DNA of 64,000 nucleotides. Source: Candidatus Iainarchaeum sp. Its GTDB lineage: Archaea; Iainarchaeota; Iainarchaeia; Iainarchaeales; UBA10191. The stretch spans positions 15,698 through 79,697 of the forward strand of contig JAUSFL010000023.1 of NCBI GenBank assembly GCA_030649735.1, in the 5' to 3' direction. The notes beneath the pieces were generated by a model that saw only the letters and a program-made list of their open reading frames with translations, was not told where the DNA came from and did not search any database. The stretch's first letter is position 1; the number at the start of each line of letters is the position of its first letter. Below, one piece after another: positions 37,197 through 48,481 of this stretch. The position numbers and the translations under genes are program-made.

Positions 37197-38012
37197 ATGG
37201 GCCAGAAAGTTGTTGCAGTTATTGCAGCGCATAATGAGGAAGTTTCAATTCAGGACACTTTGGAAATCCTTAATTCTTTCAGGCAAAAAAGGCTGCTTGA
37301 TGAAATTGTGGTTGTGAATGACGGCAGCACTGATAGGACTGCTGAGATTGCAAGGCGTTTTGGCGCTGTTGTTGCAAGCCATTCAAGAAACCAGGGAAAG
37401 CGGGCTTGCTTTATTACTGGCGCTTTCAAAGCAAGGGAGCTTGGCGCTTCCACAATGTTTATGCTTGATGCGGACATCATGGAATTCCCGGAACAAACTT
37501 TCAGGAAAATGGTTTCTTCAGTGACTAGTGAGGGAAAGCTGATGGCAATTGCGCAGCAGTTTGAGGAATCGCCCAGCCCTAAGGAAGTCCTTGACGGCGT
37601 TTCGCATTACAAAGTCAATAACTATCATTCTAATGCCCAAAGGGCTTTTAGCATTAGTGCATTGGAGCCATTGTTTAGGAACAACAAGAAGTGGGTTTCT
37701 TTGCTCACTTCAAAGGCTCATAAGTTCTTGACTCGTACTGAAAAGGCTGCTGGCAGCAAGTGGGGCCTTGAGTTTGCGTTGGACTATTTGATTCCCGCAG
37801 GAAAAGCTGTCTTTCTTCAGGAATTTCCTGTTTGCACTAGGCCTGCTTTCAGGAAGAATTCCAACCATGGAATGGTGCAAGAGCAGGGCAGGGGAATTGT
37901 GAAAATGAAAATGGCTGAAAGGAAGAATGCCGCGAAAAAGCTTTGGAGATTAAGGGCGAGAAAAAAATTTGCCAAAAGCCCAAGGCATGTTGTTTTGAAA
38001 AGGCCGCTTTAG
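37197..38012 (+). CDS. family 2 glycosyltransferase (GT-A fold) with a basic C-terminal tail
   Basis: VAVIAAHNEE...VVVNDGSTD...LDADI (DxD) pattern. Arg/Lys-rich C-terminal ~35 aa. Confidence 0.75.
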   Translation: MGQKVVAVIAAHNEEVSIQDTLEILNSFRQKRLLDEIVVVNDGSTDRTAEIARRFGAVVASHSRNQGKRACFITGAFKARELGASTMFMLDADIMEFPEQTFRKMVSSVTSEGKLMAIAQQFEESPSPKEVLDGVSHYKVNNYHSNAQRAFSISALEPLFRNNKKWVSLLTSKAHKFLTRTEKAAGSKWGLEFALDYLIPAGKAVFLQEFPVCTRPAFRKNSNHGMVQEQGRGIVKMKMAERKNAAKKLWRLRARKKFAKSPRHVVLKRPL

Positions 38013-39676
38013 ATTTTCAATTCCTTGTCTTGCTCGAAAGAAATGCCTTTCTTTAACGCGATTTCTGCCTTTTGCAGTTCTGTTCCAAGGTACATTGCGT
38101 GGCTTCCTTGCATGCTGATGTCGTTTGAGATTCTGGAGTACAGTTCTTTTGCAGTCTTTCCGCCCCACATTCTTAATGCCTGCGAGCTTTCAGGATGCAT
38201 TAAAGTGCATGAAATTTCTTCGCCTTTTAATTCCACGAGAAAGTTTCCTTTCGCATCTCTAAAGTCCTTGCGTGGTTTTCTGTAAAGCTTTAGGGCTGTT
38301 TCAACCTGCTGGTAGTAGTTGTTGTAGATTTGCGCGCTGCTTGAAATTATTATCAATAATCCGCAAGGCACTTTGATTGCTTCCGCAATTTCTTTCTGGA
38401 TTGCGGCCATTCCGTAGGCGTTTTCAGGCCAGCCTTGAACCATGTCATGGCTTCTGAAATAAACTGTTAAATTCAATTTTTCGTCCTGGACCATTGCCTG
38501 AATCATCACTAAGCAAGGAGAGCTCTTGTGCTTTCTTAAAAGCTCGTCTGCGGGATGCCATGTCACTGCAACAATCGCTTTTGAGTAAGGGTCGCGCTTT
38601 AAGGTTTCAATCATGTCTTTCACTTGATTTATTTCCGCTTTTTCCCCGTTGAATTTCACGTTTTCGAGAATGAATTCTCCCTTTCCGAACTCGAAGTTTT
38701 GGATTGCGTCATTTTCCAAAAGTTCTTTCAGTTCCTTGCTTGAAGGGCTGTAGTAAGCGCGGAGCTTGTTTCCGTAAGTGTATGCCTTTCCTGCTGGCAG
38801 TTCTGGCGAAAGAATTTCTGACTGGTATGCGCGGATTTTTTCAACAGTCAATGGAATCAGGAATGGATTCAATGACAAGTCCATGTTTTGCGCGTCTTCA
38901 ATAACGCACGCCATGTTGTTTATTTCCTTCACCCAGCGGTCAGTATTCGCGTTCATCAGGTTTTTTCTTCCGTAAGTGTAAATTGCGTGAATCATTTCCA
39001 GCCAGGTTTCAGGAATTGTTTTCCCCTGAACCAGTAAAGGCCCGCCTTCGAAAGGCAGGCTTTCACCCATTTCTTCAAACGCAAAAACCACTGGATTTTC
39101 CAAGAATACCTTTTTCTTTTCCAATGTTTTCAAAAGCTCATTTGCTCTTTCAATTTTTTCATCCAATGATGCATTGGGCATTTCAGAGTTCAAATCTATC
39201 AATTGCACGTTTTCCGAGACTTTTTGAATCATTCCTGTGGGGATGTTCTTGTCAAAGTAAACCGCGCTTTCAAATCCTGGAATTTTTCTTTCGCCAGTAA
39301 TTCCTTGCTTGAAAAACGCGCGGATTGCGTTAGCGCTTGTCACTTGCTGCAGGCCTTGGTTGTTTGGGGAAGCGCAGGCATACTCGTTGCCGAGCATTAT
39401 CATATAGCGTATTTGCGGGTTTGCAAGTAAATTCCTGACCATTCCCGCAAGCCCTGCTGGAGTGTAAAAGTTTGTCGCGATTGCAAGGTTTTCTTTGGAA
39501 AGCTTTGGCATTATTACATCACGCATTGTCCAGAGGAAAGTGACTGAGACTTGCGCGTCATTAAGTTCTGCGTCTTTTCCGACAGCGAACGAGACCCTGT
39601 CTTTCACAACCACTGGCCAGCCTTTGCCTCCAGTGCTGTCTTTCTGGTTTTTTATTTCATCAATCAATCCAGCCAT
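38009..39676 (-). CDS. thymidylate synthase (ThyA-fold) homolog with a ~220-aa N-terminal extension
   Basis: C-terminal half has SSPCLVMIQAMV (catalytic Cys region), LTVYFRSHDMVQGWPENAYGMAAIQ (RSxD...G.P.N) and SSAQIYNNY. N-terminal ~220 aa unrecognised. Confidence 0.6.
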   Translation of the reverse strand: MAGLIDEIKNQKDSTGGKGWPVVVKDRVSFAVGKDAELNDAQVSVTFLWTMRDVIMPKLSKENLAIATNFYTPAGLAGMVRNLLANPQIRYMIMLGNEYACASPNNQGLQQVTSANAIRAFFKQGITGERKIPGFESAVYFDKNIPTGMIQKVSENVQLIDLNSEMPNASLDEKIERANELLKTLEKKKVFLENPVVFAFEEMGESLPFEGGPLLVQGKTIPETWLEMIHAIYTYGRKNLMNANTDRWVKEINNMACVIEDAQNMDLSLNPFLIPLTVEKIRAYQSEILSPELPAGKAYTYGNKLRAYYSPSSKELKELLENDAIQNFEFGKGEFILENVKFNGEKAEINQVKDMIETLKRDPYSKAIVAVTWHPADELLRKHKSSPCLVMIQAMVQDEKLNLTVYFRSHDMVQGWPENAYGMAAIQKEIAEAIKVPCGLLIIISSSAQIYNNYYQQVETALKLYRKPRKDFRDAKGNFLVELKGEEISCTLMHPESSQALRMWGGKTAKELYSRISNDISMQGSHAMYLGTELQKAEIALKKGISFEQDKELKI

Positions 39677-39736: not shown

Positions 39737-40378
39737 TCAGTTTTTAAAAAGCAAGTCCAGCTCTTTTTGCACTTGAATCCAGACTTCTTCAATGCTTTTG
39801 CTTCCGTCAATGACTTTGATATTGTGGTCTGGAAGCAGTTTTGGAAGTTCCAAGTAATTCTGCCTTGCCTTTTCCAAAAAGCCTGTTTTTTCAAACTTTT
39901 CATTCTTGAAATTTCCCGTAATTTTTTTCCTTTCATTGTCTATTGCAGAGCGCTGCATTGCAAGTTCTGCAGGGCAGTCAATTAACAGCACTAAATCCGG
40001 CTTTTGCACTTTTGCATGAAGCTTGATGATTTTTTGCAAGTCATTGCCTTGGGCTTTTTGGTAAGCGAAAGTAGAGTACATGAACCTGTCGCAAAGCACT
40101 ATTGTTCCCTGCTTCAAGTTTGGCAAAATCAGATTCTGCAAGTGGTCTTGCCTGTCCTTTAAATAAAGCTCGAGGTATTTTTCTGCATTGGCTTCTGGCT
40201 CTGTGTCTTTGGATAGCAATTCTCTAATCATTGTCCCATATTTCCTGTATGTAGGCTCGCGCGTCAAGAGAATGTAATTCTTTTTTGATTTTTTGAAAAT
40301 GTAATTTGCTGCCTTCAAGAACTGCGTGCTTTTTCCGCACCCGTCAATGCCTTCCCAAATTATGAATTTTCCTTGCAT
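39737..40378 (-). CDS. tmk: thymidylate kinase
   Basis: IIWEGIDGCGKSTQ P-loop and LTREPT motif. Confidence 0.85.
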   Translation of the reverse strand: MQGKFIIWEGIDGCGKSTQFLKAANYIFKKSKKNYILLTREPTYRKYGTMIRELLSKDTEPEANAEKYLELYLKDRQDHLQNLILPNLKQGTIVLCDRFMYSTFAYQKAQGNDLQKIIKLHAKVQKPDLVLLIDCPAELAMQRSAIDNERKKITGNFKNEKFEKTGFLEKARQNYLELPKLLPDHNIKVIDGSKSIEEVWIQVQKELDLLFKN

Positions 40379-40473
40379 TTCAGATTGAATGAATTTACTG
40401 TTTTAAAAGCCTTTAGTGACATTACTTGTTTTACAAAGATGAATTCAAGCAAAATTTCAGAAAGTGTTTTTTT

Positions 40474-42228
40474 ATGCCTACCATCAGGAAGCCAATCATC
40501 ACAGTCCTTGGGCATGTTGACCATGGAAAGACCTCTTTTTTGGACGCCATTCGCGGAACCACTGTTGTTGAGAAGGAAGCCGGCAGGATTACGCAGCACA
40601 TTGGCGCTACTGAAGTCCCAATAGAAGCAGTTACAAAGATTGCCGGCCCGCTTCTTGAAAAATACAAGTTTAATTTGACAATTCCCGGGCTTTTGTTCAT
40701 TGACACTCCGGGCCATGAGGCTTTTTCAAACTTGCGCAGGAGAGGCGGAAGCATTGCGGACTTGGCTGTTTTGGTCATTGACATAATGCAGGCCTGCCAG
40801 CCCCAGACTTCTGAAAGCATTGAAATCTTGAAGGCTTTCAAGGTTCCTTTTGTGATTGTTGCAAACAAGGTTGACTTGATTCAAGGCTGGGAAAAGCATC
40901 CTGGAATGAGCTTTACTGAAAGCATCAAGCTTCAGGAAGACTATGTTCAAACTGATTTGGATGAGAAAATTTACTGTCTGGTTGGGGAAATGTTCCACAA
41001 GGGCTTTGTGTGCGAGCGCTTTGACAGGATTTCTGATTTTACAAAGCAGGTTGCGATAATTCCTTTAAGCGCGAAAGACGCTGAAGGATTGCCTGAAGTT
41101 TTGCTTTTTCTTGCTGGCTTGAGCCAAAAGTTTTTGGAAAGCCAGTTGAGGATTGAAGTTTCAGGCCAGGGAAAGGGAACAGTGCTTGAAGTGAAGGAAG
41201 AGAAAGGGTTGGGAAAAACAATTGATGTCATTTTGTATGATGGCTCTTTGAAAGTCGGCGATGAGATTATTGTCGGCGCAGTTAATGGGTTTGTGAAAAC
41301 CAAGATTCGCGCCTTGCTCCAGCCAAAGCCCTTGGATGAAATTCGCTCTCCAGAGCAAAAGTTTGATTCAGTCAGGGAAGTAAGCGCTGCAGTTGGAATA
41401 AAGATTGCAGCCCCGAATTTGGAAGGCGTTCTTGCAGGCAGTCCTTTGATTGTTTACCAAAAGCCAGAGGATGAAGAGGAAGTGCTCAAGGAAGTTGTTG
41501 GATTGAACATTGAGTCAGAGGCTTTGGGGCCTGTTGTGAGGACTGATGCATTGGGCAGTTTGGAGGCCTTGACAATGCTTTTGGACAAGGCCGGAATCAA
41601 GCCGCGCTTTGCGTCAGTTGGCGAGGTTTCAAGAAGGGACATTATTGAGGCTGTCGGCGTTGCCAAAGAAGACAAGTTCAAGGGAGTTGTTTTTGCATTC
41701 AACACAAAATTGAATGACGGCGCTGTTGAAGAATTGAAAAAAAATCCAGTGAAAGTTTTTTCAGCAAATGTCATTTACAGGCTCATTGAAGATTATGAAA
41801 AGTGGGTTAGTGATGAAAACGCGGCAGAGAAAAAGTCTGTTTTGGAAAAAATCGTGTTTCCTGCAAGAATCATTGTGGTCCGAAATTGCATTTTTCGCAA
41901 CGCAAATCCCGCGATTGTTGGAGTGAAGGTTTTGGGCGGCAAATTAAGGCCTGGCGCCAAATTGTTCAATGGCGAGAAATTGCTTGGCGAAGTCATTGCA
42001 ATACAGGACAAGGGAAGCAATTTGCAGGAATTAAAGCAAGGCCAAGAGGCCGCGATTTCCATAACTGACGCGGTTTGCGGCCGCAATCTTTTCGAAGAGG
42101 ACGAGCTTTTGACAGTGCTTTCAGTCAATGATTATGCGGAAATTTTGAAAATAAAGGACGCCTTTACGCAGGCTGAATTGGACTTGGCTGAAGAAATCAG
42201 GAACAAGTTAAGGAAGCAAAGCAAGTAG
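40474..42228 (+). CDS. infB: translation initiation factor aIF5B (IF2 homolog)
   Basis: PIITVLGHVDHGKTSFLDAIRGT GTPase G1, DTPGHEAF G3, NKVD G4. About 585 aa from the ATG at 40474. Confidence 0.9.
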   Translation: MPTIRKPIITVLGHVDHGKTSFLDAIRGTTVVEKEAGRITQHIGATEVPIEAVTKIAGPLLEKYKFNLTIPGLLFIDTPGHEAFSNLRRRGGSIADLAVLVIDIMQACQPQTSESIEILKAFKVPFVIVANKVDLIQGWEKHPGMSFTESIKLQEDYVQTDLDEKIYCLVGEMFHKGFVCERFDRISDFTKQVAIIPLSAKDAEGLPEVLLFLAGLSQKFLESQLRIEVSGQGKGTVLEVKEEKGLGKTIDVILYDGSLKVGDEIIVGAVNGFVKTKIRALLQPKPLDEIRSPEQKFDSVREVSAAVGIKIAAPNLEGVLAGSPLIVYQKPEDEEEVLKEVVGLNIESEALGPVVRTDALGSLEALTMLLDKAGIKPRFASVGEVSRRDIIEAVGVAKEDKFKGVVFAFNTKLNDGAVEELKKNPVKVFSANVIYRLIEDYEKWVSDENAAEKKSVLEKIVFPARIIVVRNCIFRNANPAIVGVKVLGGKLRPGAKLFNGEKLLGEVIAIQDKGSNLQELKQGQEAAISITDAVCGRNLFEEDELLTVLSVNDYAEILKIKDAFTQAELDLAEEIRNKLRKQSK

Positions 42229-42240
42229 TTTTTCCGCACA

Positions 42241-42250
42241 TTTTTTAAAT
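42241..42250 (+). promoter_or_regulatory. TATA-like element upstream of the ilvBN leader ORF (leaderless start predicted)
   Basis: TTTTTTAAAT lies ~25 nt upstream of the ATG at 42273. No SD sequence in between. Confidence 0.35.
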
Positions 42251-42272
42251 TCCTCGCAAGTTATTTATTGTC

Positions 42273-42350
42273 ATGTTTAGTGCAATGCCATCAAAAGTTC
42301 TGCTGCCAGTCGCTGTTTTGGTAGTCTTGGTTGTTGCACTGGTTGCTTAA
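42273..42350 (+). CDS. candidate Val/Leu-rich leader peptide ORF upstream of ilvBN (25 codons)
   Basis: MFSAMPSKVLLPVAVLVVLVVALVA: 9 Val and 5 Leu among the last 17 codons. Sits in the 208-nt gap before ilvB. Confidence 0.3.
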   Translation: MFSAMPSKVLLPVAVLVVLVVALVA

Positions 42351-42436
42351 GCATTCCTGAAAAAAATCGAATTCTGGGAGTGCGGGATTAAAAAGTTCAG
42401 AAGTCTTTAGAAAAAAAGGAAAGAAAGTGGAAAAAA

Positions 42437-44140
42437 ATGAATGGTGCTGAGGCAGTGTTGAAGGCATTGCAGGAAGAGAAAGTCAGGCATTCTTTCGGGG
42501 TTACTGGCGGTTCTGTAATTCCATTGTTTGACGAGTACTTCAAGGACAATCATGAAATCAGGCACATTCCAGTAAGGCATGAGCAGGGCGCTGCGCACGC
42601 GGCTGACGGCTATGCAAGGGCTTCTGGAAAGCCAGGAGTTTGCATTGCGACTTCAGGCCCTGGAGCAACTAATTTGGTCACTGGAATAATGACTGCTTTC
42701 ATGGATTCTAGTCCAATGGTTGCTTTGGGCGGGCAGGTTGCTACTTCGCTGATTGGGAATGACGCCTTTCAAGAGTCTGACATGATGGGAATAACTCTTC
42801 CAATAACAAAGCATAATTTTCAAATCCGCTCTCCGGAAAAAATCAATTCCACAATAAAGAACGCGTTCAAGATTGCGACCACTGGAAGGCCCGGGCCTGT
42901 TTACATTGACTTGCCTAAAGACACTTTAATGAAGGAAGTTTCTGCTGTGGAGAAAGTTCCATTGCATGGCTATAAGCCGAACTTGAAAGGCCATCCATTG
43001 CAGGTGAAAAAGGCTGCAGAGCTTTTGCTGAATGCCGAAAGGCCTGTCTTGCTTTTGGGCGGCGGAGTCATTCTTGCAAACGCCGCAAAGGAAGCTGCAG
43101 AATTGGCTTTGGAATTCAACATTCCAGTAATAACCACTTTAATGGGAAAGTCGGCATTTCCTGAAACAAATGCTCTCTCGCTTGGAATGCTTGGCATGCA
43201 TGGGAGAAAATGCGCGAATTACGCTATTTCCAATGCTGATGTGGTTTTGGCTGTCGGCTGCAGGTTTAATGACAGGATTACTGGAAAGCTTTCAACATTC
43301 TTGAAGGACGCAAAATTAATCCACATTGACGTTGATAATTCAGAGATTGGAAAAATCGTTCCTTCAGCAATTCCGATTGTTGGGGACGCAAAGCTTGTTT
43401 TGCAAGACTTGCTTTTGGCCGCAAAAAAGTTTTCTTTAGCGAAGAAAACAACTTGGTCTGAAAAATTAAAGGTTTTGGCGAAAGAATGCGACTGTGACTT
43501 GAATATTTCTTCAAATCCGGCAGACCCTAAAAGAGTGATTTTTGAAATTTCCAAAGTCCTCAAGGAAAATGACATTGTAACCACTGGGGTAGGCCAGCAT
43601 CAAATGTTTGCAGCGCACTTCCTAAAGCGCGATAGGCCAAGGACTTTCATTTCCAGCGGCGGCGCCGGAACAATGGGATTTGGATTTCCTGCCGCGATTG
43701 GCGCAAGGCTTGCAAGGCCGGATTCTGAAGTTTTCAACATTGATGGCGATGGAAGCTTTGGAATGAATGTCCAGGAGCTTGCAACCTGCAGGTTTGAAAA
43801 CATTAAGGTCATTCCGGTAATTTTCAATAATTCTTACTTAGGAATGGTCAGGCAGTGGCTTGAACTGTTTTATGAAAAGCGGTATTCCACTGTTGACTTG
43901 GGGCAAAGCACTGACTTTTCTAAAATTTCTGAAGGCTTTGGAGTGAAGGGATTGAGGGTTGAAAGGCCTTCAGAGCTTGCTGAAGCGTTCCAGGCCGCGT
44001 TGAAGAATGATGAAACAACTGTAATTGATGTTGCAATCGCGCCAGAAGCAAACATCACTCCAATGTTTTCTGCGGGCTCTTCAGTCTTTGAAATGTTCGG
44101 ACCTTGCATTACTGAAAATTATTTTAAGAGGGCATTGTAA
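42437..44140 (+). CDS. ilvB: acetolactate synthase large subunit (ThDP-dependent)
   Basis: ThDP-binding GDGSFGMN...NN motif. Three-domain ~567-aa ALS pattern (GVTGGSVIPLFD, FISSGGAGTMGFGFPAAIGA). Confidence 0.85.
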   Translation: MNGAEAVLKALQEEKVRHSFGVTGGSVIPLFDEYFKDNHEIRHIPVRHEQGAAHAADGYARASGKPGVCIATSGPGATNLVTGIMTAFMDSSPMVALGGQVATSLIGNDAFQESDMMGITLPITKHNFQIRSPEKINSTIKNAFKIATTGRPGPVYIDLPKDTLMKEVSAVEKVPLHGYKPNLKGHPLQVKKAAELLLNAERPVLLLGGGVILANAAKEAAELALEFNIPVITTLMGKSAFPETNALSLGMLGMHGRKCANYAISNADVVLAVGCRFNDRITGKLSTFLKDAKLIHIDVDNSEIGKIVPSAIPIVGDAKLVLQDLLLAAKKFSLAKKTTWSEKLKVLAKECDCDLNISSNPADPKRVIFEISKVLKENDIVTTGVGQHQMFAAHFLKRDRPRTFISSGGAGTMGFGFPAAIGARLARPDSEVFNIDGDGSFGMNVQELATCRFENIKVIPVIFNNSYLGMVRQWLELFYEKRYSTVDLGQSTDFSKISEGFGVKGLRVERPSELAEAFQAALKNDETTVIDVAIAPEANITPMFSAGSSVFEMFGPCITENYFKRAL

Positions 44141-44643
44141 TGAGTTTTGAGAAAAAATCCAATGGGTTGAGAAAGCACATTGTTGGAATGCTTGTGAATG
44201 ACGAGCCCGGGGTTTTGGCAAAGATTTCCGGAATGTTCACTCGCCGCGGCTTTAACATTGACACTATCATTGTCGGAAAGACAAACATTCCTGATGTTTC
44301 CCACATTGTAATAAGCCTTTTGGGGAATGACAGGACTATAGAGCAGTTGGACAAGCAATTGTACAAAATGATTGACATTGTAAAGCTTGCTGACTTTAGC
44401 GAGTCAAATGCAGTGGTTCGAGAGCATTGCCTCTTGAAGGTTTCTTCCACTGAAAAAAGCGTTGAGCACTTGAATAATGTATGCAAACTTTTCGAGGCCC
44501 GCGTGCTTCACGTGAACACTGAAAGCGTCATTGTGGAACTCGCAAGCTCTCCTTCAAAAATTGATTCATTGATTGAAACCCTTGCCCCTTTTGGAATCAA
44601 GGAATTAAGCAGGACCGGAGTCAACGCGCTGCAGAAAGACTGA
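44140..44643 (+). CDS. ilvN: acetolactate synthase small (regulatory) subunit
   Basis: ACT domain HIVGMLVNDEPGVLAKISGMFTRRGFNIDTI. ATGA overlap with ilvB. Confidence 0.85.
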   Translation: MSFEKKSNGLRKHIVGMLVNDEPGVLAKISGMFTRRGFNIDTIIVGKTNIPDVSHIVISLLGNDRTIEQLDKQLYKMIDIVKLADFSESNAVVREHCLLKVSSTEKSVEHLNNVCKLFEARVLHVNTESVIVELASSPSKIDSLIETLAPFGIKELSRTGVNALQKD

Positions 44644-44708
44644 CTTTTTTTTGGTTTTTGGTTTTAAAAACTGGCATATTTTAAATTCTTGGAATTCTTT
44701 ATTGTTTA

Positions 44709-45428
44709 ATGCCTCAAATCATCCGTCAAGGCGTTGCTGCCAAGTGGCGTTCTGAAAGACTGCAGCAAGCGCGGAAAAGCCTTCATGACAAATTAAGGGT
44801 TTTCAAAGGGGCCAGCGCGCATCAGAGGAGAATGTACGCTGACTTGAGGAAAACAATTGTTTTTGGAAAGAAATTCCTTTCAACTTTTCCTGAAATTGAA
44901 GTGCGCGGGAAGAAAAGGAAAAAATTTGCATTATTTCTTTCTAGGACTGATTGGGAGTCTCCGGTTTCAATTGCATTGAATGTCCAGGACGTGCCAAAGG
45001 GAAGCAACTTGCCTGGCGCTTGGCATCCCAGGCTAATGCAAAGCAAGCTTGCTGAAGCCGGCTTGGAATTTGACAAAAATAGTGTAATAATGACTCTTCA
45101 AGGAAGGCAATTAACTGAAAGAGAGCAGAAAGCCAAGCCATTGCTTGACTTGTTCAAAAACTGTTCTGGAAAATCTTGGGCTGACTTTCTTGTTGAAAGA
45201 GTTGAAGAGCACGCAAGGCAATTGGGCTTTAAGCAATGCAAAATCAGGGAGCCAAGCACGCTCGTATTTTACCAAACTCCAGTGGTTTCAAAGCCTGGCA
45301 GTTCCAGAAGGCCTGCAACTGATGGGGAAAAATTGAAAATCAGGCAGCAAATGCACAAGCTGTATGACGGCACTGCATTAAGCCACCATTACAGGAAAGA
45401 AGGAGAATTTTGGGTCAAGGATTTGTAA
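44709..45428 (+). CDS. hypothetical basic protein
   Basis: 239-aa ORF, Arg/Lys-rich, no recognised motif. Confidence 0.45.
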   Translation: MPQIIRQGVAAKWRSERLQQARKSLHDKLRVFKGASAHQRRMYADLRKTIVFGKKFLSTFPEIEVRGKKRKKFALFLSRTDWESPVSIALNVQDVPKGSNLPGAWHPRLMQSKLAEAGLEFDKNSVIMTLQGRQLTEREQKAKPLLDLFKNCSGKSWADFLVERVEEHARQLGFKQCKIREPSTLVFYQTPVVSKPGSSRRPATDGEKLKIRQQMHKLYDGTALSHHYRKEGEFWVKDL

Positions 45429-45532
45429 GTTTAAAAAGCAGGGGCTTTTTAAAGATTTTCCACCAATTTTACTGTATTAATTCCTAATTTTTTGGAATTT
45501 CTGCATTTTCGTCTGGGAAACTGGCGAGGGGG

Positions 45533-46033
45533 TTGTTTTCAATGCAGTTAATAATCAGCGATCCTAAAAACGCAAAGGCTTTTGCAAAAAAAATCGAGGA
45601 TTCAAAGCCTTTTATTGGAAAAAAAGTCGGTGACACTGTCCAGCTTTCAAGCGTTGGCTTGGAAGGCTATGAGGCAAAAATTACTGGCGGCAGTGACAAG
45701 ACTGGCACTCCAATGCGCTTTGACATTCCAGGCATTGGCAGAAAGAAAGTTTACATTACAACAGGCCCTGGATTTGTTCCTTTAAGGAAAGGCCAGAGGA
45801 GAAGGGTTTTCGTGCGCGGAAACGCTGTTGCTGAAGACATTCATCAATTGAACCTGAAAGTCACAAAATTCGGCTCAAAATCTTTGGAAGAGTATTTCCC
45901 AAAGGCTGAAAAGAAGGAAGAAGAGCAAAAATTGAGCGTTAAGGAAGAAATGGTAAAGAAGTCCTTGGATTCAGTCGACAAAGTGACTGCTGAAGAAGCG
46001 GCTGCAATGGTCAAGGAAATCAAAAAGCATTAA
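45533..46033 (+). CDS. rps6e: ribosomal protein S6e
   Basis: ITGGSDKTGTPMRFDIPGIGRKKVYITTGPGF...RKGQRRRVFVRGNAV matches S6e. Confidence 0.85.
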   Translation: MFSMQLIISDPKNAKAFAKKIEDSKPFIGKKVGDTVQLSSVGLEGYEAKITGGSDKTGTPMRFDIPGIGRKKVYITTGPGFVPLRKGQRRRVFVRGNAVAEDIHQLNLKVTKFGSKSLEEYFPKAEKKEEEQKLSVKEEMVKKSLDSVDKVTAEEAAAMVKEIKKH

Positions 46034-46049
46034 AGAGTGGTTTTGAATA

Positions 46050-47444
46050 GTGGCTGAAAAAAAAACTAAAGTTCCAAAAAAAGCAAAAGTTCCGGAAACT
46101 CCAATCGCGGAGATTTCTGAAGCTTCGGCTTTGGCTGAAAAGCCAGTCAAAACAAAATCTTCTGCAAAAAAAGCGAGGGAAAAAGAAATTCCCGCAATTG
46201 CTGAAGCAAAAAAACCTGAAAAAAAGCAGGAGAAAATTTTTGCAGGCGAGCCAGAGCCTTTGCAGGCGGCCTTGAACATTGGAATGGTAGGCCATGTAGA
46301 TCATGGAAAAACTTCTTTGACAAAAGCGTTGACTGGCCGCTGGACTGACACGCACAGTGAAGAGCTCAAGAGGGGAATTTCAATTCGCCTAGGCTATGCT
46401 GACGCGACTTTCAGGAAATGCCCGAACTGTAAGGGAAGCGAGGCATTCACTTCGCAAAAAACCTGCCCTTCCTGCGGCACAGCAGCAAAAGTCTTGCGGA
46501 AAATCAGCATTGTTGACGCTCCAGGCCATGAGACTTTAATGGCAACAATGCTTTCAGGCGCGGCTTTAATGCATGGCGCGATTTTGGTCATTGCTGCAAA
46601 CGAGCCTTGCCCTCAGCCTCGCACTGCAGAGCATTTGATGGCCTTGATGCTTTCAGGGATCGAGCACATTGTCGTTGCCCAAAACAAGGTTGACCTAGTG
46701 CCTAGGGAGCAGGCAATGCAAAATTATCAGGCAATAAAGAAATTCCTGCAAGAGAACGGATTTGAAAAAGCGCCGATAATCCCGACTGCAGCAAATATTG
46801 GGGCAAACATTGACTTGCTTATTGAGGCAATCCAGGAAGCAATTCCGACTCCAGAGTTTGACACTTCAAAGCCTGCAAAAATGTATGTTGCAAGGAGCTT
46901 TGACATCAACAAGCCTGGAATTATTCCAGAACAGCTTGTTGGCGGAGTTGTTGGGGGAAGCATTATTGAAGGCAAAATTAAAGTCGGTGATGAAATTGAA
47001 ATTTCTCCAGGCATTGAGGGAAAAAAAGTGCTGACCAAGGTTTCAAGCCTTAGCACTTCAAACAACAAGCTTCAAGAGGCAATGCCTGGCGGATTGATTG
47101 CAATCGGAACTTTGATTGATCCTTCAATTACTCGCAATGACCAATTGCGCGGCCAAGTTGTCGGAATGCCTGGAAAGCTTCCAGAGCCTGTTTCCCGCCT
47201 TAAGCTGGAATTGCATTTAATCAAAAGGCTGATAACGCAGGAATTGCAGGAAATTAAAATGAACGAGCCTGTTGTCTTGACTGTAGGCACAATGACCACT
47301 GTCGGAACAGTTGTTTCAAGCACTAAAGAGAGAATTGATGTTTTATTGAAAGCGAAAGTGATTGCGGAAAAAGGCCAAAAAATCGCAATCAGCAAGAAAG
47401 ATGCCGGAAGATGGAGGTTGGCTGCTTTTGGAATCTGCAATTAA
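46050..47444 (+). CDS. eif2g: translation initiation factor aIF2 gamma subunit, with a possible Lys/Ala-rich N-terminal extension
   Basis: NIGMVGHVDHGKTSL (G1), zinc ribbon CPNCKGSEAFTSQKTCPSCG, DAPGHE (G3), QNKVD (G4). About 75 aa precede the conserved core. An alternative in-frame TTG lies near 46258. Confidence 0.85.
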   Translation: MAEKKTKVPKKAKVPETPIAEISEASALAEKPVKTKSSAKKAREKEIPAIAEAKKPEKKQEKIFAGEPEPLQAALNIGMVGHVDHGKTSLTKALTGRWTDTHSEELKRGISIRLGYADATFRKCPNCKGSEAFTSQKTCPSCGTAAKVLRKISIVDAPGHETLMATMLSGAALMHGAILVIAANEPCPQPRTAEHLMALMLSGIEHIVVAQNKVDLVPREQAMQNYQAIKKFLQENGFEKAPIIPTAANIGANIDLLIEAIQEAIPTPEFDTSKPAKMYVARSFDINKPGIIPEQLVGGVVGGSIIEGKIKVGDEIEISPGIEGKKVLTKVSSLSTSNNKLQEAMPGGLIAIGTLIDPSITRNDQLRGQVVGMPGKLPEPVSRLKLELHLIKRLITQELQEIKMNEPVVLTVGTMTTVGTVVSSTKERIDVLLKAKVIAEKGQKIAISKKDAGRWRLAAFGICN

Positions 47445-47811
47445 AATCGCGTTTGACACCAACATGCTTTTGGGCATTGAGCAATTCAAGCTTCACTTGA
47501 AGGAAGAAATCGACAGGGTTTTGCCCAAGGCAGAATTGGCTGTCCCGGACCAGGTTATTGAAGAATTGGGAAAGCTCGCTTTCAAAAGCAAGGCATTGGA
47601 AAAGCAGGTTAAAATCGCGCTTGCGTTTTTGAAGGCTGAGAAAGTCAAAACATTGAAATGGCGTGAAATTAACGCCGACAAAGCCCTTTTAGGGCTTTCG
47701 AAGAATGGTTTTATAATAGCGACTAACGACAAGGAACTGAGGAAAAGCATAAAAAAGAATTCTGGCAAATGCTTAATACTCAGGAAAAAAAAGTACTTAA
47801 TTTTGGAATAA
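47401..47811 (+). CDS. PIN-domain protein (conserved neighbour of aIF2-gamma in archaea)
   Basis: IAFDTNMLL (PIN motif 1) ...ATND... About 137 aa from the ATG at 47401. Overlaps the eif2g 3' end. Confidence 0.6.
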   Translation: MPEDGGWLLLESAIKIAFDTNMLLGIEQFKLHLKEEIDRVLPKAELAVPDQVIEELGKLAFKSKALEKQVKIALAFLKAEKVKTLKWREINADKALLGLSKNGFIIATNDKELRKSIKKNSGKCLILRKKKYLILE

Positions 47812-47848
47812 TGGTTTTGAAAAATTTTGAAAAAAAGAGGTTGAAAGA

Positions 47849-48481
47849 ATGTATCAAGTATGCACTGTTCACGACACTGTCAGGGTTCCGCCAAACAAGT
47901 TTGCGGGAGAAATCAACAAGTCAATCTTAAAGATTGTTCAAGAGCAGTATGAAGGGCTCGTGGACGAGGATTTGGGCGTTGTTGTTTCAGTAGTTAGCGC
48001 TTCAAAAACCAGCGAGGGAAAAGTCGTTCCAGGGGACGGCGCGGCATATTATGATGCAGACCTCGAGCTTTTGATGTACAAGCCAATAGTGCAGGAAGTA
48101 GTTGAAGGAAGCATTTCTGAAGTGACTGAATTTGGGGCTTTCATAAAAACAGGGCCTTTGGAAGGCTTGATTCACGTTTCGCAAATAATGGATGATTACA
48201 TAAATCATGACGCAAAGCTTCCTGGCTTTGTCGGAAAAGAGTCCGGGAAAAAATTAACAAAGAACGAGAATGTGCTTGCAAGGATTGTGACTGTTTCATT
48301 GAGGGGAACTATTCCGGAATCAAAAATCGGCCTGACAATGAGGCAATTCGGGCTTGGAAAGGAAGACTGGCTTAAGGTTGACGAGAAAAAGAAGGAAAAG
48401 AAAGAGACAGACAAGGTAAAAAAGGAAGACAAGTTTGCCAAGTCAAAAGGCGGAGACCGCGAGCAAAGGCCCAAAAAATAA
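47849..48481 (+). CDS. rpoE: DNA-directed RNA polymerase subunit E-prime (Rpb7 homolog) with S1 domain
   Basis: Rpb7-like N-domain plus S1 domain (GSISEVTEFGAFIKTGPLEGLIHVSQI). Lys-rich C-terminus. Confidence 0.8.
   Translation: MYQVCTVHDTVRVPPNKFAGEINKSILKIVQEQYEGLVDEDLGVVVSVVSASKTSEGKVVPGDGAAYYDADLELLMYKPIVQEVVEGSISEVTEFGAFIKTGPLEGLIHVSQIMDDYINHDAKLPGFVGKESGKKLTKNENVLARIVTVSLRGTIPESKIGLTMRQFGLGKEDWLKVDEKKKEKKETDKVKKEDKFAKSKGGDREQRPKK

Follow-up and report, generated by a model that had tools for sequence, protein, structure and literature searches.

A Leu/Val-rich leader reading frame with a stop-adjacent hairpin as a probable ribosome-read regulator of branched-chain amino acid operons in DPANN archaea

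Does an archaeon gauge its supply of Val and Leu by translating a leader peptide? This question is raised by a 64,000-nucleotide stretch of DNA from Candidatus Iainarchaeum sp. (contig JAUSFL010000023.1; hereafter, the window), in which a short open reading frame (ORF) rich in Val and Leu codons precedes ilvBN, an operon for branched-chain amino acid (BCAA) synthesis. Leader-peptide attenuation is a textbook bacterial mechanism, and archaeal amino acid operons are usually explained by protein regulators. Here, we find that this ORF, together with a hairpin abutting its stop codon, recurs before BCAA operons in DPANN archaea. Judging from its conservation and composition, it is very likely that the ORF is translated and functions as a Leu/Val-sensing cis-regulator read by the ribosome. 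The element and the operon comprise the following features:

42228 / 42437 (+), stop of aIF5B and ATG of ilvB, with 208 nt between them
42241..42250 (+), TATA box TTTTTTAAAT of the putative leader promoter; 22-23 nt from the TATA 8-mer to the leader ATG, a leaderless geometry
42273..42350 (+), leader ORF MFSAMPSKVLLPVAVLVVLVVALVA, 25 codons plus TAA (ATG at 42273, TAA at 42348-42350)
42297..42347 (+), Val/Leu(/Ala) run of 17 codons (V8, L5, A3, P1), the presumed sensing segment
42351..42383 (+), stop-adjacent hairpin starting at the first base after the stop; predicted folding energy -10 kcal/mol
42351-42358 and 42376-42383 (+), 5' arm GCATTCCT and the 3' arm GGGAGTGC with which it pairs; loop A7-TCGAATTCT
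42437..44140 (+), ilvB, acetolactate synthase large subunit, with three thiamine pyrophosphate (TPP)-enzyme domains (Pfam TPP_enzyme_N/M/C)
44140..44643 (+), ilvN, acetolactate synthase small (regulatory) subunit (Pfam ACT_AHAS_ss and ALS_ss_C), whose start overlaps the ilvB stop

The 25-codon Val/Leu-rich ORF that the earlier note had placed in the 208-nt gap before ilvB is present as described, and 13 of its 17 final codons specify Val or Leu. We compared it with all ATG ORFs of 12-50 codons on both strands of the window (n = 441). Nine of the last 12 residues of the leader ORF are Leu or Val, compared with six in the runner-up; moreover, none of 100 dinucleotide-preserving shuffles of the window yielded an ORF with at least nine. 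Being unique among the 441, the ORF is not one of many such frames that this genome produces by chance, as the earlier note had feared it might be, and we regard it as confirmed that the ORF is not a chance occurrence. Leader-like ORFs for other amino acids were sought as well, and none was convincing in the window or in the loci retrieved.

To place the ORF among its relatives, loci around relatives of IlvB were sampled from species-representative genomes, metagenomes, and exact-protein look-ups; the survey is confined to these loci. Of 5222 short ORFs, 48 were picked out by a detector for ATG ORFs of 12-50 codons in which a 10-residue window within the last 12 residues has at least eight Leu, Val, or Ile; about 40 of the 48 represent a single feature, namely, a + strand ORF in a gap of 150-400 nt located 5' of the first gene of a BCAA operon. 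After removal of duplicates, this feature was present at 37 distinct loci in Iainarchaeota and Woesearchaeota/Nanoarchaeia (individual loci are cited by number below). Most are labelled Ca. Iainarchaeum, and a second group is labelled Woesearchaeota or Nanoarchaeia, with three of the latter carrying the label 'uncultured Methanosarcinales'. Two more Woesearchaeota loci carry Val-only leaders, MTRTTYHKTVAVVVVAVV and MKNTTYNVNSVSVVVVVV. The operons of the relatives are arranged as leader-leuA-ilvB-ilvN-ilvC-ilvD or leader-ilvB-ilvN-ilvC-ilvD, and that of the window as leader-ilvB-ilvN. The leader ORF is always on the operon strand and 5' of the first gene, leuA or ilvB, even with changed gene order and neighbours; because the upstream neighbours vary by locus, the ORF travels with the operon. 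We defined the family by an ATG ORF of 18-41 codons, in which Leu, Val, or Ile make up at least eight of 10 residues close to the C-terminus, by a hairpin whose distance from the stop is 0-3 nt, and by a same-strand BCAA operon downstream; the window element has all of these properties. A covariance model built without the window and without its nearest relative, L055, matched 42318-42395 with 48.4 bits (E = 3.9e-8); the next match in the window scored 14 bits, and by this model the window holds no second copy of the element. The weak matches of the model in L059 and L080 were rejected since they fall inside the ilvB coding sequence. Rfam returned no match for the leader region even at E values up to 10 and none for eight related loci at E values up to 1.

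Similar upstream ORFs in related archaea, for which the earlier note had advised a search, thus exist before ilvB and leuA operons at 37 distinct DPANN loci, and their conservation speaks for its suggestion of an archaeal cis-regulatory peptide. Its other suggestion, that ilvBN might be bacterial-derived, found no such backing. The best 120 homologues of IlvB have DPANN archaeal names wherever they are named, with 55-73% identity, and the bacterial relatives retrieved reach at most 49%; one record, 'biosynthetic-type acetolactate synthase large subunit, Candidatus Diapherotrites archaeon', is 100% identical to the IlvB of the window. None of the bacterial loci retrieved contains a Leu/Val leader ORF. 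A recent bacterial origin of ilvBN is therefore not supported, and neither is the recent acquisition of a bacterial operon along with its attenuator.

Several features suggest that the leader ORF is translated. Its ATG is kept at every locus, and a conserved B recognition element (BRE)/TATA box lies upstream of every leader ORF. In one class (at least 12 relatives; the class includes the window and L055), the TATA box ends 21-26 nt before the ATG and there is no Shine-Dalgarno (SD) sequence; in the other, the TATA-ATG spacing is 29-54 nt and an SD-like (A)GTGA usually lies 7-10 nt before the ATG. Both modes occur within one close clade, in which L065 is leaderless and L016, L068, and L069 have 10 extra nt including the SD. 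The TATA box of the window is conserved in L055 as ATTTTTAAA, and its type and spacing are also found at other leaderless-looking first genes of the window. Based on this spacing, the leader ORF would lie at the 5' end of its transcript in the window, in line with the leaderless reading of the earlier note. In the alignment, T occupies codon position 2 in at least 90% of the sequences at eight successive codons with a strict 3-nt periodicity. Between the window and L055, identity is 85% in the hairpin, 70% in the codon run, and 50% at synonymous sites of ilvB, and a 24-nt block is identical. The last 30 nt of the ORF and the hairpin are thus more conserved than the synonymous sites of ilvB, which points to purifying selection on this part, and the N-terminal half appears free to vary. 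The likeness of the N-terminus to enterobacterial ilv leaders, on which the earlier note had remarked, consequently carries no weight, the N-terminus being the least conserved part among the relatives.

The composition of the C-terminal run points to Leu and Val as the residues that are read. In the last 12 residues of 36 leaders, Leu accounts for 52%, Val for 30%, Ala for 6%, Ile for 3%, and Phe for 0.5%, whereas hydrophobic 12-mers of real proteins from the same loci contain 21% Leu, 17% Ala, 17% Phe, 17% Ile, and 11% Val. The share of Val differs with the operon: V/(L+V) is 0.54 with ilvB first versus 0.31 with leuA first (Mann-Whitney p = 0.0016, uncorrected for phylogeny; several of our statistics treat related sequences as independent). 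In agreement with this difference, Val-only leaders (VAVVVVAVV and SVSVVVVVV) precede ilvBNCD and Leu-rich leaders precede leuA-ilvBNCD.

A separate observation concerns four Woesearchaeota-type loci (L017 2298-2363, L020 2343-2375, L024 2177-2209, and L071 1668-1694), in which a second start shares nucleotides with the leader stop (TTATGA or GTGTGA). At this start begins a tiny ORF, MIAL(I/V)L..., which is rich in Ile, Ala, and Leu and runs through the 5' arm and the loop of the hairpin. It could serve as a second sensing ORF, translated by termination-reinitiation, or could merely follow from the conservation of the stem.

The second conserved part of the element is the hairpin; in 33 of 36 loci, it begins 0-3 nt after the leader stop. 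Hairpins that adjoin the stop with a predicted energy of -7 kcal/mol or lower are present at 86% of the leaders but, among 354 stops of ordinary genes from the same DNA, at only 16% (p ~1e-16). Among the 23 Iainarchaeota-type sequences, all eight of the eight core pairs have changed on both sides, as illustrated by the arm pairs GCACTCC/GGGAGTGC, GTGCCCTC/GAGGGCG, ATACCTCC/GGGGGTAT, and ATGTCCTC/GGGGATAT; 89% of the cells are paired versus 40-70% with the partner slid, and the covariation score is reached by none of 500 shuffles. Because G-U pairs occur on the + strand only, the structure is one of RNA and not a DNA palindrome. The arm sequences are unrelated between clades and the position is the same; so is that of the Woesearchaeota-type hairpin (TTGCCCTAATTCTT...), which is unrelated in sequence and varies little and, therefore, adds no covariation evidence. 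The loops are 13-19 nt long with conserved sequence. T-runs of at least four lie in the loop just before the 3' arm or at most 30 nt after the hairpin in 29 of 34 loci, and in 20 of 34 relatives the stem is followed by such a run within 30 nt.

At the same position in the leuB-ilvB gap of L019, L021, L023, and L050 (labelled Nanohalarchaeota), we noted a different structured element: there is no Leu/Val ORF, and repeated short hairpins (e.g., GTGTGCTTGAGCGAAGCGAAACACAC and CAACCTTTTACAAGGTTG) lie before ilvB.

Beyond the hairpin, the window contains the following features, to which we add the end of the preceding gene:

42229..42233 (+), T5 run directly 3' of the aIF5B stop, read from the sequence; likely the terminator of the upstream gene
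42384..42410 (+), conserved post-hairpin block GGGATTAAAAAG-TTCAGAAGTCTTTAG, kept in L055, L001, L004, L006, L009, L010, and L100
42425..42430 (+), weak SD-like AAGTGG, 6 nt 5' of the ilvB ATG, read from the sequence
44645..44665 (+), operon terminator T8-GG-T5-GG-T4 after ilvN, an array of T runs with no hairpin

Is the leader then a classical attenuator? RNAalifold over the whole leader returned the single hairpin and no second conserved or long-range helix. Duplex energies of the Leu/Val run with either hairpin arm were no better than those of shuffles (z ~0), and a helix of the last leader codons (GCTAGGA) with a TCCTAGC in the 5' arm of several loci was rejected when its paired fraction (46% in 23 sequences) proved to be the same as in shuffles. 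Because it has no alternative antiterminator helix and no U-tract terminator, the window leader is not an attenuator of the trp/leu/ilv type. The attenuation leader proposed in the earlier note thus stands as to its codon run and its conserved leader; its terminator/antiterminator pair is absent, with one hairpin and, in the window, no U-tract in its place. Nevertheless, we suggest that the leader probably does the same job as a classical attenuator though it lies outside that class.

An SD (GGTG) precedes the first operon gene in nearly all loci, and the relatives show a clear GGTG(A) where the window has AAGTGG; where the downstream genes start was judged by eye, using the SD and N-terminal conservation. 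In L055, ilvB has a TTG start with a GGTGA SD and, therefore, needs a 5' untranslated region (UTR). In L016, L065, L069, and L047, only 24-34 nt separate the hairpin from the SD-led start, which leaves no room for another promoter and forces co-transcription. In the window, the spacer between the hairpin and ilvB is A-rich, and the leader and ilvB may share a transcript; nothing between them resembles the T8/T5/T4 array after ilvN, which is an example of the ordinary terminator of this genome.

Two peculiarities of this spacer are recorded here for their own sake. A block TTCAGAAGTC(N)TTAG (42396-42410 in the window) lies 14-16 nt after the hairpin, also in L001, L004, L006, L009, L010, L055, and L100, and L008, L012, and L053 have AGATATC..TAG at its position; it keeps a fixed distance to the hairpin and a variable distance to the gene start and fits none of the explanations tested. 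The post-hairpin block at 42384-42410 as a whole may serve as a second promoter of TATA-like type, as a site for a regulator, or as an element of the 5' UTR. As a shared operator, AAGTC(N)TTAG was not borne out, the window having a few other copies in or beside unrelated genes (e.g., that of a KaiC-like ATPase) in uninformative numbers. The second peculiarity is an insertion of ~130 nt between the attenuator and ilvB in L068 (~990-1190), where the SD and start are duplicated (GGTGGAGCCTATGCAGG... then GGTGAAACTTATGCAGG...) and the first copy hits a stop.

How might a ribosome on the leader control the operon? On behalf of the ilvBN operon, the leader peptide would gauge how much Val- and Leu-tRNA is charged. 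According to our model, transcription from the TATA box at 42241-42250 would start at the leader AUG or beside it, and a ribosome would load on the leaderless 5' end and trail the RNA polymerase. With Val and Leu plentiful, this ribosome would reach the UAA, and its footprint, extending ~9-12 nt past the A site, would cover the 5' arm and block the hairpin. With Val or Leu scarce, it would dwell in the 17-codon run, at least four codons upstream, and the hairpin would fold. A ribosome at the first Leu/Val codons cannot reach the 5' arm, and the long run would therefore set the time of hairpin denial. The folded hairpin would be the permissive state: 33 nt of hairpin behind the polymerase would deny nascent RNA to FttA/aCPSF1 and, in most relatives, would also hide a U-tract in or just after the hairpin. 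This shield would last until the polymerase reached the SD, 18-55 nt further, where a new ribosome would load for ilvB. An open hairpin, with the ribosome parked on the stop, would keep the RNA single-stranded and lead to premature termination. Shielding would thereby turn the operon on in starvation, as feedback expects, and this role would also explain why the hairpin is kept in the clade of the window despite the lost U-tract.

The model draws on what has been described for archaeal termination. In the pre-termination complex, FttA holds single-stranded nascent RNA at -20 to -36 and cuts at -22 (PMC11616081), and aCPSF1 cooperates with U-tracts (PMC8716108). For the FttA/aCPSF1 route, ~36 nt of nascent RNA must be unstructured, and U-tracts assist it (PMC11616081, PMC8716108); since the spacer that follows the leader stop is not translated, it would be exposed to this route. 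The parts of the model differ in how probable we consider them. On balance, if by little, we favour a leader-peptide regulator with starvation-induced expression. We propose only tentatively that the folded hairpin shields against termination. Doubtful to a slightly greater degree is the full scheme of a two-state, one-helix archaeal attenuator, conserved in at least two DPANN phyla and with its Val and Leu codons tuned to the operon, in which the ribosome gates a single hairpin versus FttA/aCPSF1- and U-tract-dependent termination.

Several points weigh against this interpretation. All results are sequence inference from uncultured DPANN organisms, and the direction of control would follow only from the feedback logic of biosynthetic operons; the relation between Val share and operon type, as said, lacks a correction for phylogeny. 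The element is lacking in the archaeal loci L018, L025, L049, and L051 though the operon start is in view, and the detector found none in any Thermoplasmata locus retrieved. The 191-nt window leader folds no better than shuffles (z = -0.17). No T-run of at least four lies near the hairpin in the window, L055, L001, L026, or L072, and none longer than three is present at 42351-42436 of the window. At the other extreme, L064, L065, and L068 resemble bacterial terminators, with U8-9 starting 3-4 nt after the stem, and a GC-rich hairpin followed by U's is a terminator in bacteria, not a shield. Finally, sequences resembling a TATA box lie beyond the hairpin in the window (ATTAAAAAG), in L009 (GGTTTTAAAAC), and in Woesearchaeota-type loci (TTTATAAAAAAC, 22-24 nt before the leuA ATG), where a second promoter is plausible; such a promoter would make read-through less important.

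The first alternative takes these terminator-like loci at face value. The hairpin, with a U-tract where present, would be a bacterial-style terminator that is blocked only by a ribosome at the stop, as in E. coli pyrBI, and the operon would be read through when Val- and Leu-tRNA are plentiful and shut off in starvation. With a single hairpin 0-3 nt after the stop and no alternative helix able to invert the logic, this is the most direct reading of the geometry. It is the plainest physical reading for L064, L065, and L068, and GC-rich stems followed by U4-U9 within 1-4 nt are found in L006, L009, L010, and L012 as well as in these three. However, it would amount to positive feedback on a biosynthetic operon, contrary to every characterised amino acid leader. 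Moreover, the hairpin and leader are strongly conserved in the clade of the window, which has no U-tract; the loops, at 13-19 nt and with a conserved sequence, do not resemble those of intrinsic terminators; and the real terminator of this genome is the bare T8/T5/T4 array. We therefore consider this wiring unlikely, albeit the least unlikely of the alternatives.

Slightly less probable again is translational attenuation in the style of the mycobacterial poly-Cys short ORF (sORF) or of erm, in which a stalled ribosome would free the ribosome-binding site (RBS) of ilvB and leave transcription unaffected. The SD (GGTG) kept at the first gene in nearly all loci, the lack of a terminator-like U-tract in the window, and a precedent (bioRxiv 10.1101/834739) are in its favour. 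In this precedent, a leaderless first sORF of cognate codons controls downstream genes of the same transcript by stalling, and the stalled ribosome blocks a duplex that sequesters the RBS (bioRxiv 10.1101/834739). By contrast, no RNA duplex sequestering the downstream RBS is predicted for the DPANN leaders. A simulated ribosome placed on the run or on the stop caused no consistent change in the predicted accessibility of the SD and start (means 0.53, 0.57, and 0.54 in 28 loci), and the absence of both a conserved long-range helix and better-than-shuffled pairing of the Leu/Val run with the arms argues in the same direction.

A further alternative is interference between tandem promoters. The leader unit of promoter, sORF, hairpin, and T-runs would then make a short sensor transcript whose termination decides the occlusion of a second promoter before the operon, and the plain geometry would give the expected sign. 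In Woesearchaeota-type loci, T4-T6 after the hairpin is followed by the BRE/TATA-like GGAGGAAAAATTTATAAAAAAC 22-24 nt before the leuA ATG, a spacing as in the leader promoter; in the window, TTTAGAAA lies 23 nt 5' of the ilvB ATG and ATTAAAAA directly follows the hairpin. Nevertheless, L016, L065, L069, and L047 are without room for a second promoter, an SD is conserved between the putative TATA box and the ATG, ilvB of L055 has its TTG start, and TATA-like words are common in AT-rich spacers and were not separated from background. As an explanation of the family, we rate this scenario as improbable, a step below translational attenuation. As an observation on its own, GGAGGAAAAATTTATAAAAAAC is a full BRE/TATA-like element in L017, L022, L024, L052, L073, L076, and L095, with a conserved AGGTGA SD between it and the leuA ATG, and two expression modes for leuA seem possible at these loci.

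It is marginally less probable still that the ORF encodes a small hydrophobic (membrane) peptide in its own right, as an independent gene that is ended by its own terminator hairpin and only happens to be syntenic with the BCAA operon. The ORF has its own promoter, a hydrophobic C-terminus, and basic or polar N-termini (MKK.., MSK..), and the hairpin with T-runs could end a short transcript. On the other hand, a tail that is 82% Leu+Val, and in which Ile, Phe, Met, and Ala hardly occur, is unlike the hydrophobic segments of proteins in the same genomes. A membrane helix would have 18-20 mixed residues of genome-like composition, whereas the hydrophobic stretch is often only 12-13 residues and the N-terminus is unconserved. 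The ORF always stands before the first gene of the BCAA operon, its Val share follows the operon type, and the hairpin abuts its stop far more often than at ordinary genes. That the leader is a chance ORF in an AT-rich spacer, for which its shortness and the insignificance of the local fold taken alone could be cited, is refuted by conservation and composition and has a negligible probability.

A ribosome-read regulator, which we favour, can be compared with several characterised leaders. Those of enterobacteria (ivbL-ilvBN, ilvL-ilvGMEDA, leuL-leuABCD, and trpL) have the same short ORF with a run of end-product codons, the position of the ribosome being read via an adjacent RNA structure (PMC11857589 and general knowledge). 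The window leader differs in being archaeal, in its leaderless start, and in a codon run that reaches the last codon. It also has one stop-abutting hairpin instead of the 1:2, 2:3, and 3:4 alternatives, no hairpin-plus-U terminator, and no sequence or Rfam relation to them. In the ilvBNC attenuator of Corynebacterium glutamicum, a leader peptide (IlvL, MTIIRLVVVTARRLP) likewise precedes ilvB; the mRNA 5' end lies one nucleotide from the leader start codon, and the Val codons are needed for valine control (PMC11857589). Unlike the DPANN element, this attenuator is bacterial and has three hairpins, an anti-antiterminator, an antiterminator, and a terminator (PMC11857589). In being single-element designs, pyrBI and tnaC-tnaAB of E. 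coli resemble the DPANN leader, in which FttA would replace Rho only by hypothesis. In both, the leader ribosome itself does the blocking, either of the terminator hairpin (pyrBI) or of a Rho factor-loading site beside the stop (tnaC). The signal is UTP-dependent pausing in pyrBI and, in tnaC, free Trp, which the nascent peptide senses; an amino acid codon run is absent from both.

We found no report of an amino acid leader-peptide regulator in archaea in a full-text literature search, whose incomplete coverage makes this absence of evidence only, and none of a cis element that gates FttA by amino acid supply. If the model is true, coupling between the ribosome and RNA polymerase in archaea would be tight enough to serve as a sensor. 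The leader would also be a natural cis element for probing FttA/Spt5-dependent termination versus translation, an interplay that the authors of the FttA structure named as untested (PMC11616081). Some DPANN archaea, often regarded as metabolically dependent, keep BCAA synthesis genes and, it appears, place these genes under end-product control. At ~110 nt, the single-hairpin design is short and could be transferred to model archaea to serve as a genetic tool.

In the window, ilvBN sits alone inside a cluster of archaeal translation and transcription genes (40426-48481), with aIF5B, S6e, aIF2-gamma, a PIN/Fcf1-like protein, and RpoE as neighbours. The relatives have leuA-ilvBNCD, and no ilvC, ilvD, or leuA was found in the annotated parts of the window. 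A scan of the window for bacterial-type promoters and terminators was uninformative, its single 'terminator-like' match lying inside the leader ORF. Opposite the leader, an antisense 25-codon ATG ORF (42277-42354, -) has no sign of conservation; in our view, it merely mirrors the periodic NTN codons. Downstream of the operon, a 239-aa ORF without a Pfam match (44709-45428) has a promoter, CATATTTTAAATTC (~20 nt to the ATG), that is nearly the same as the leader promoter CACATTTTTTAAATTCC. Finally, a 555-aa protein at 38009-39676 (-) combines MtrA-like, thymidylate-synthase-like, and pterin-binding DUF4346 domains and adjoins thymidylate kinase (39737-40378); this unusual fusion is possibly a thymidylate synthase with a different folate or pterin.

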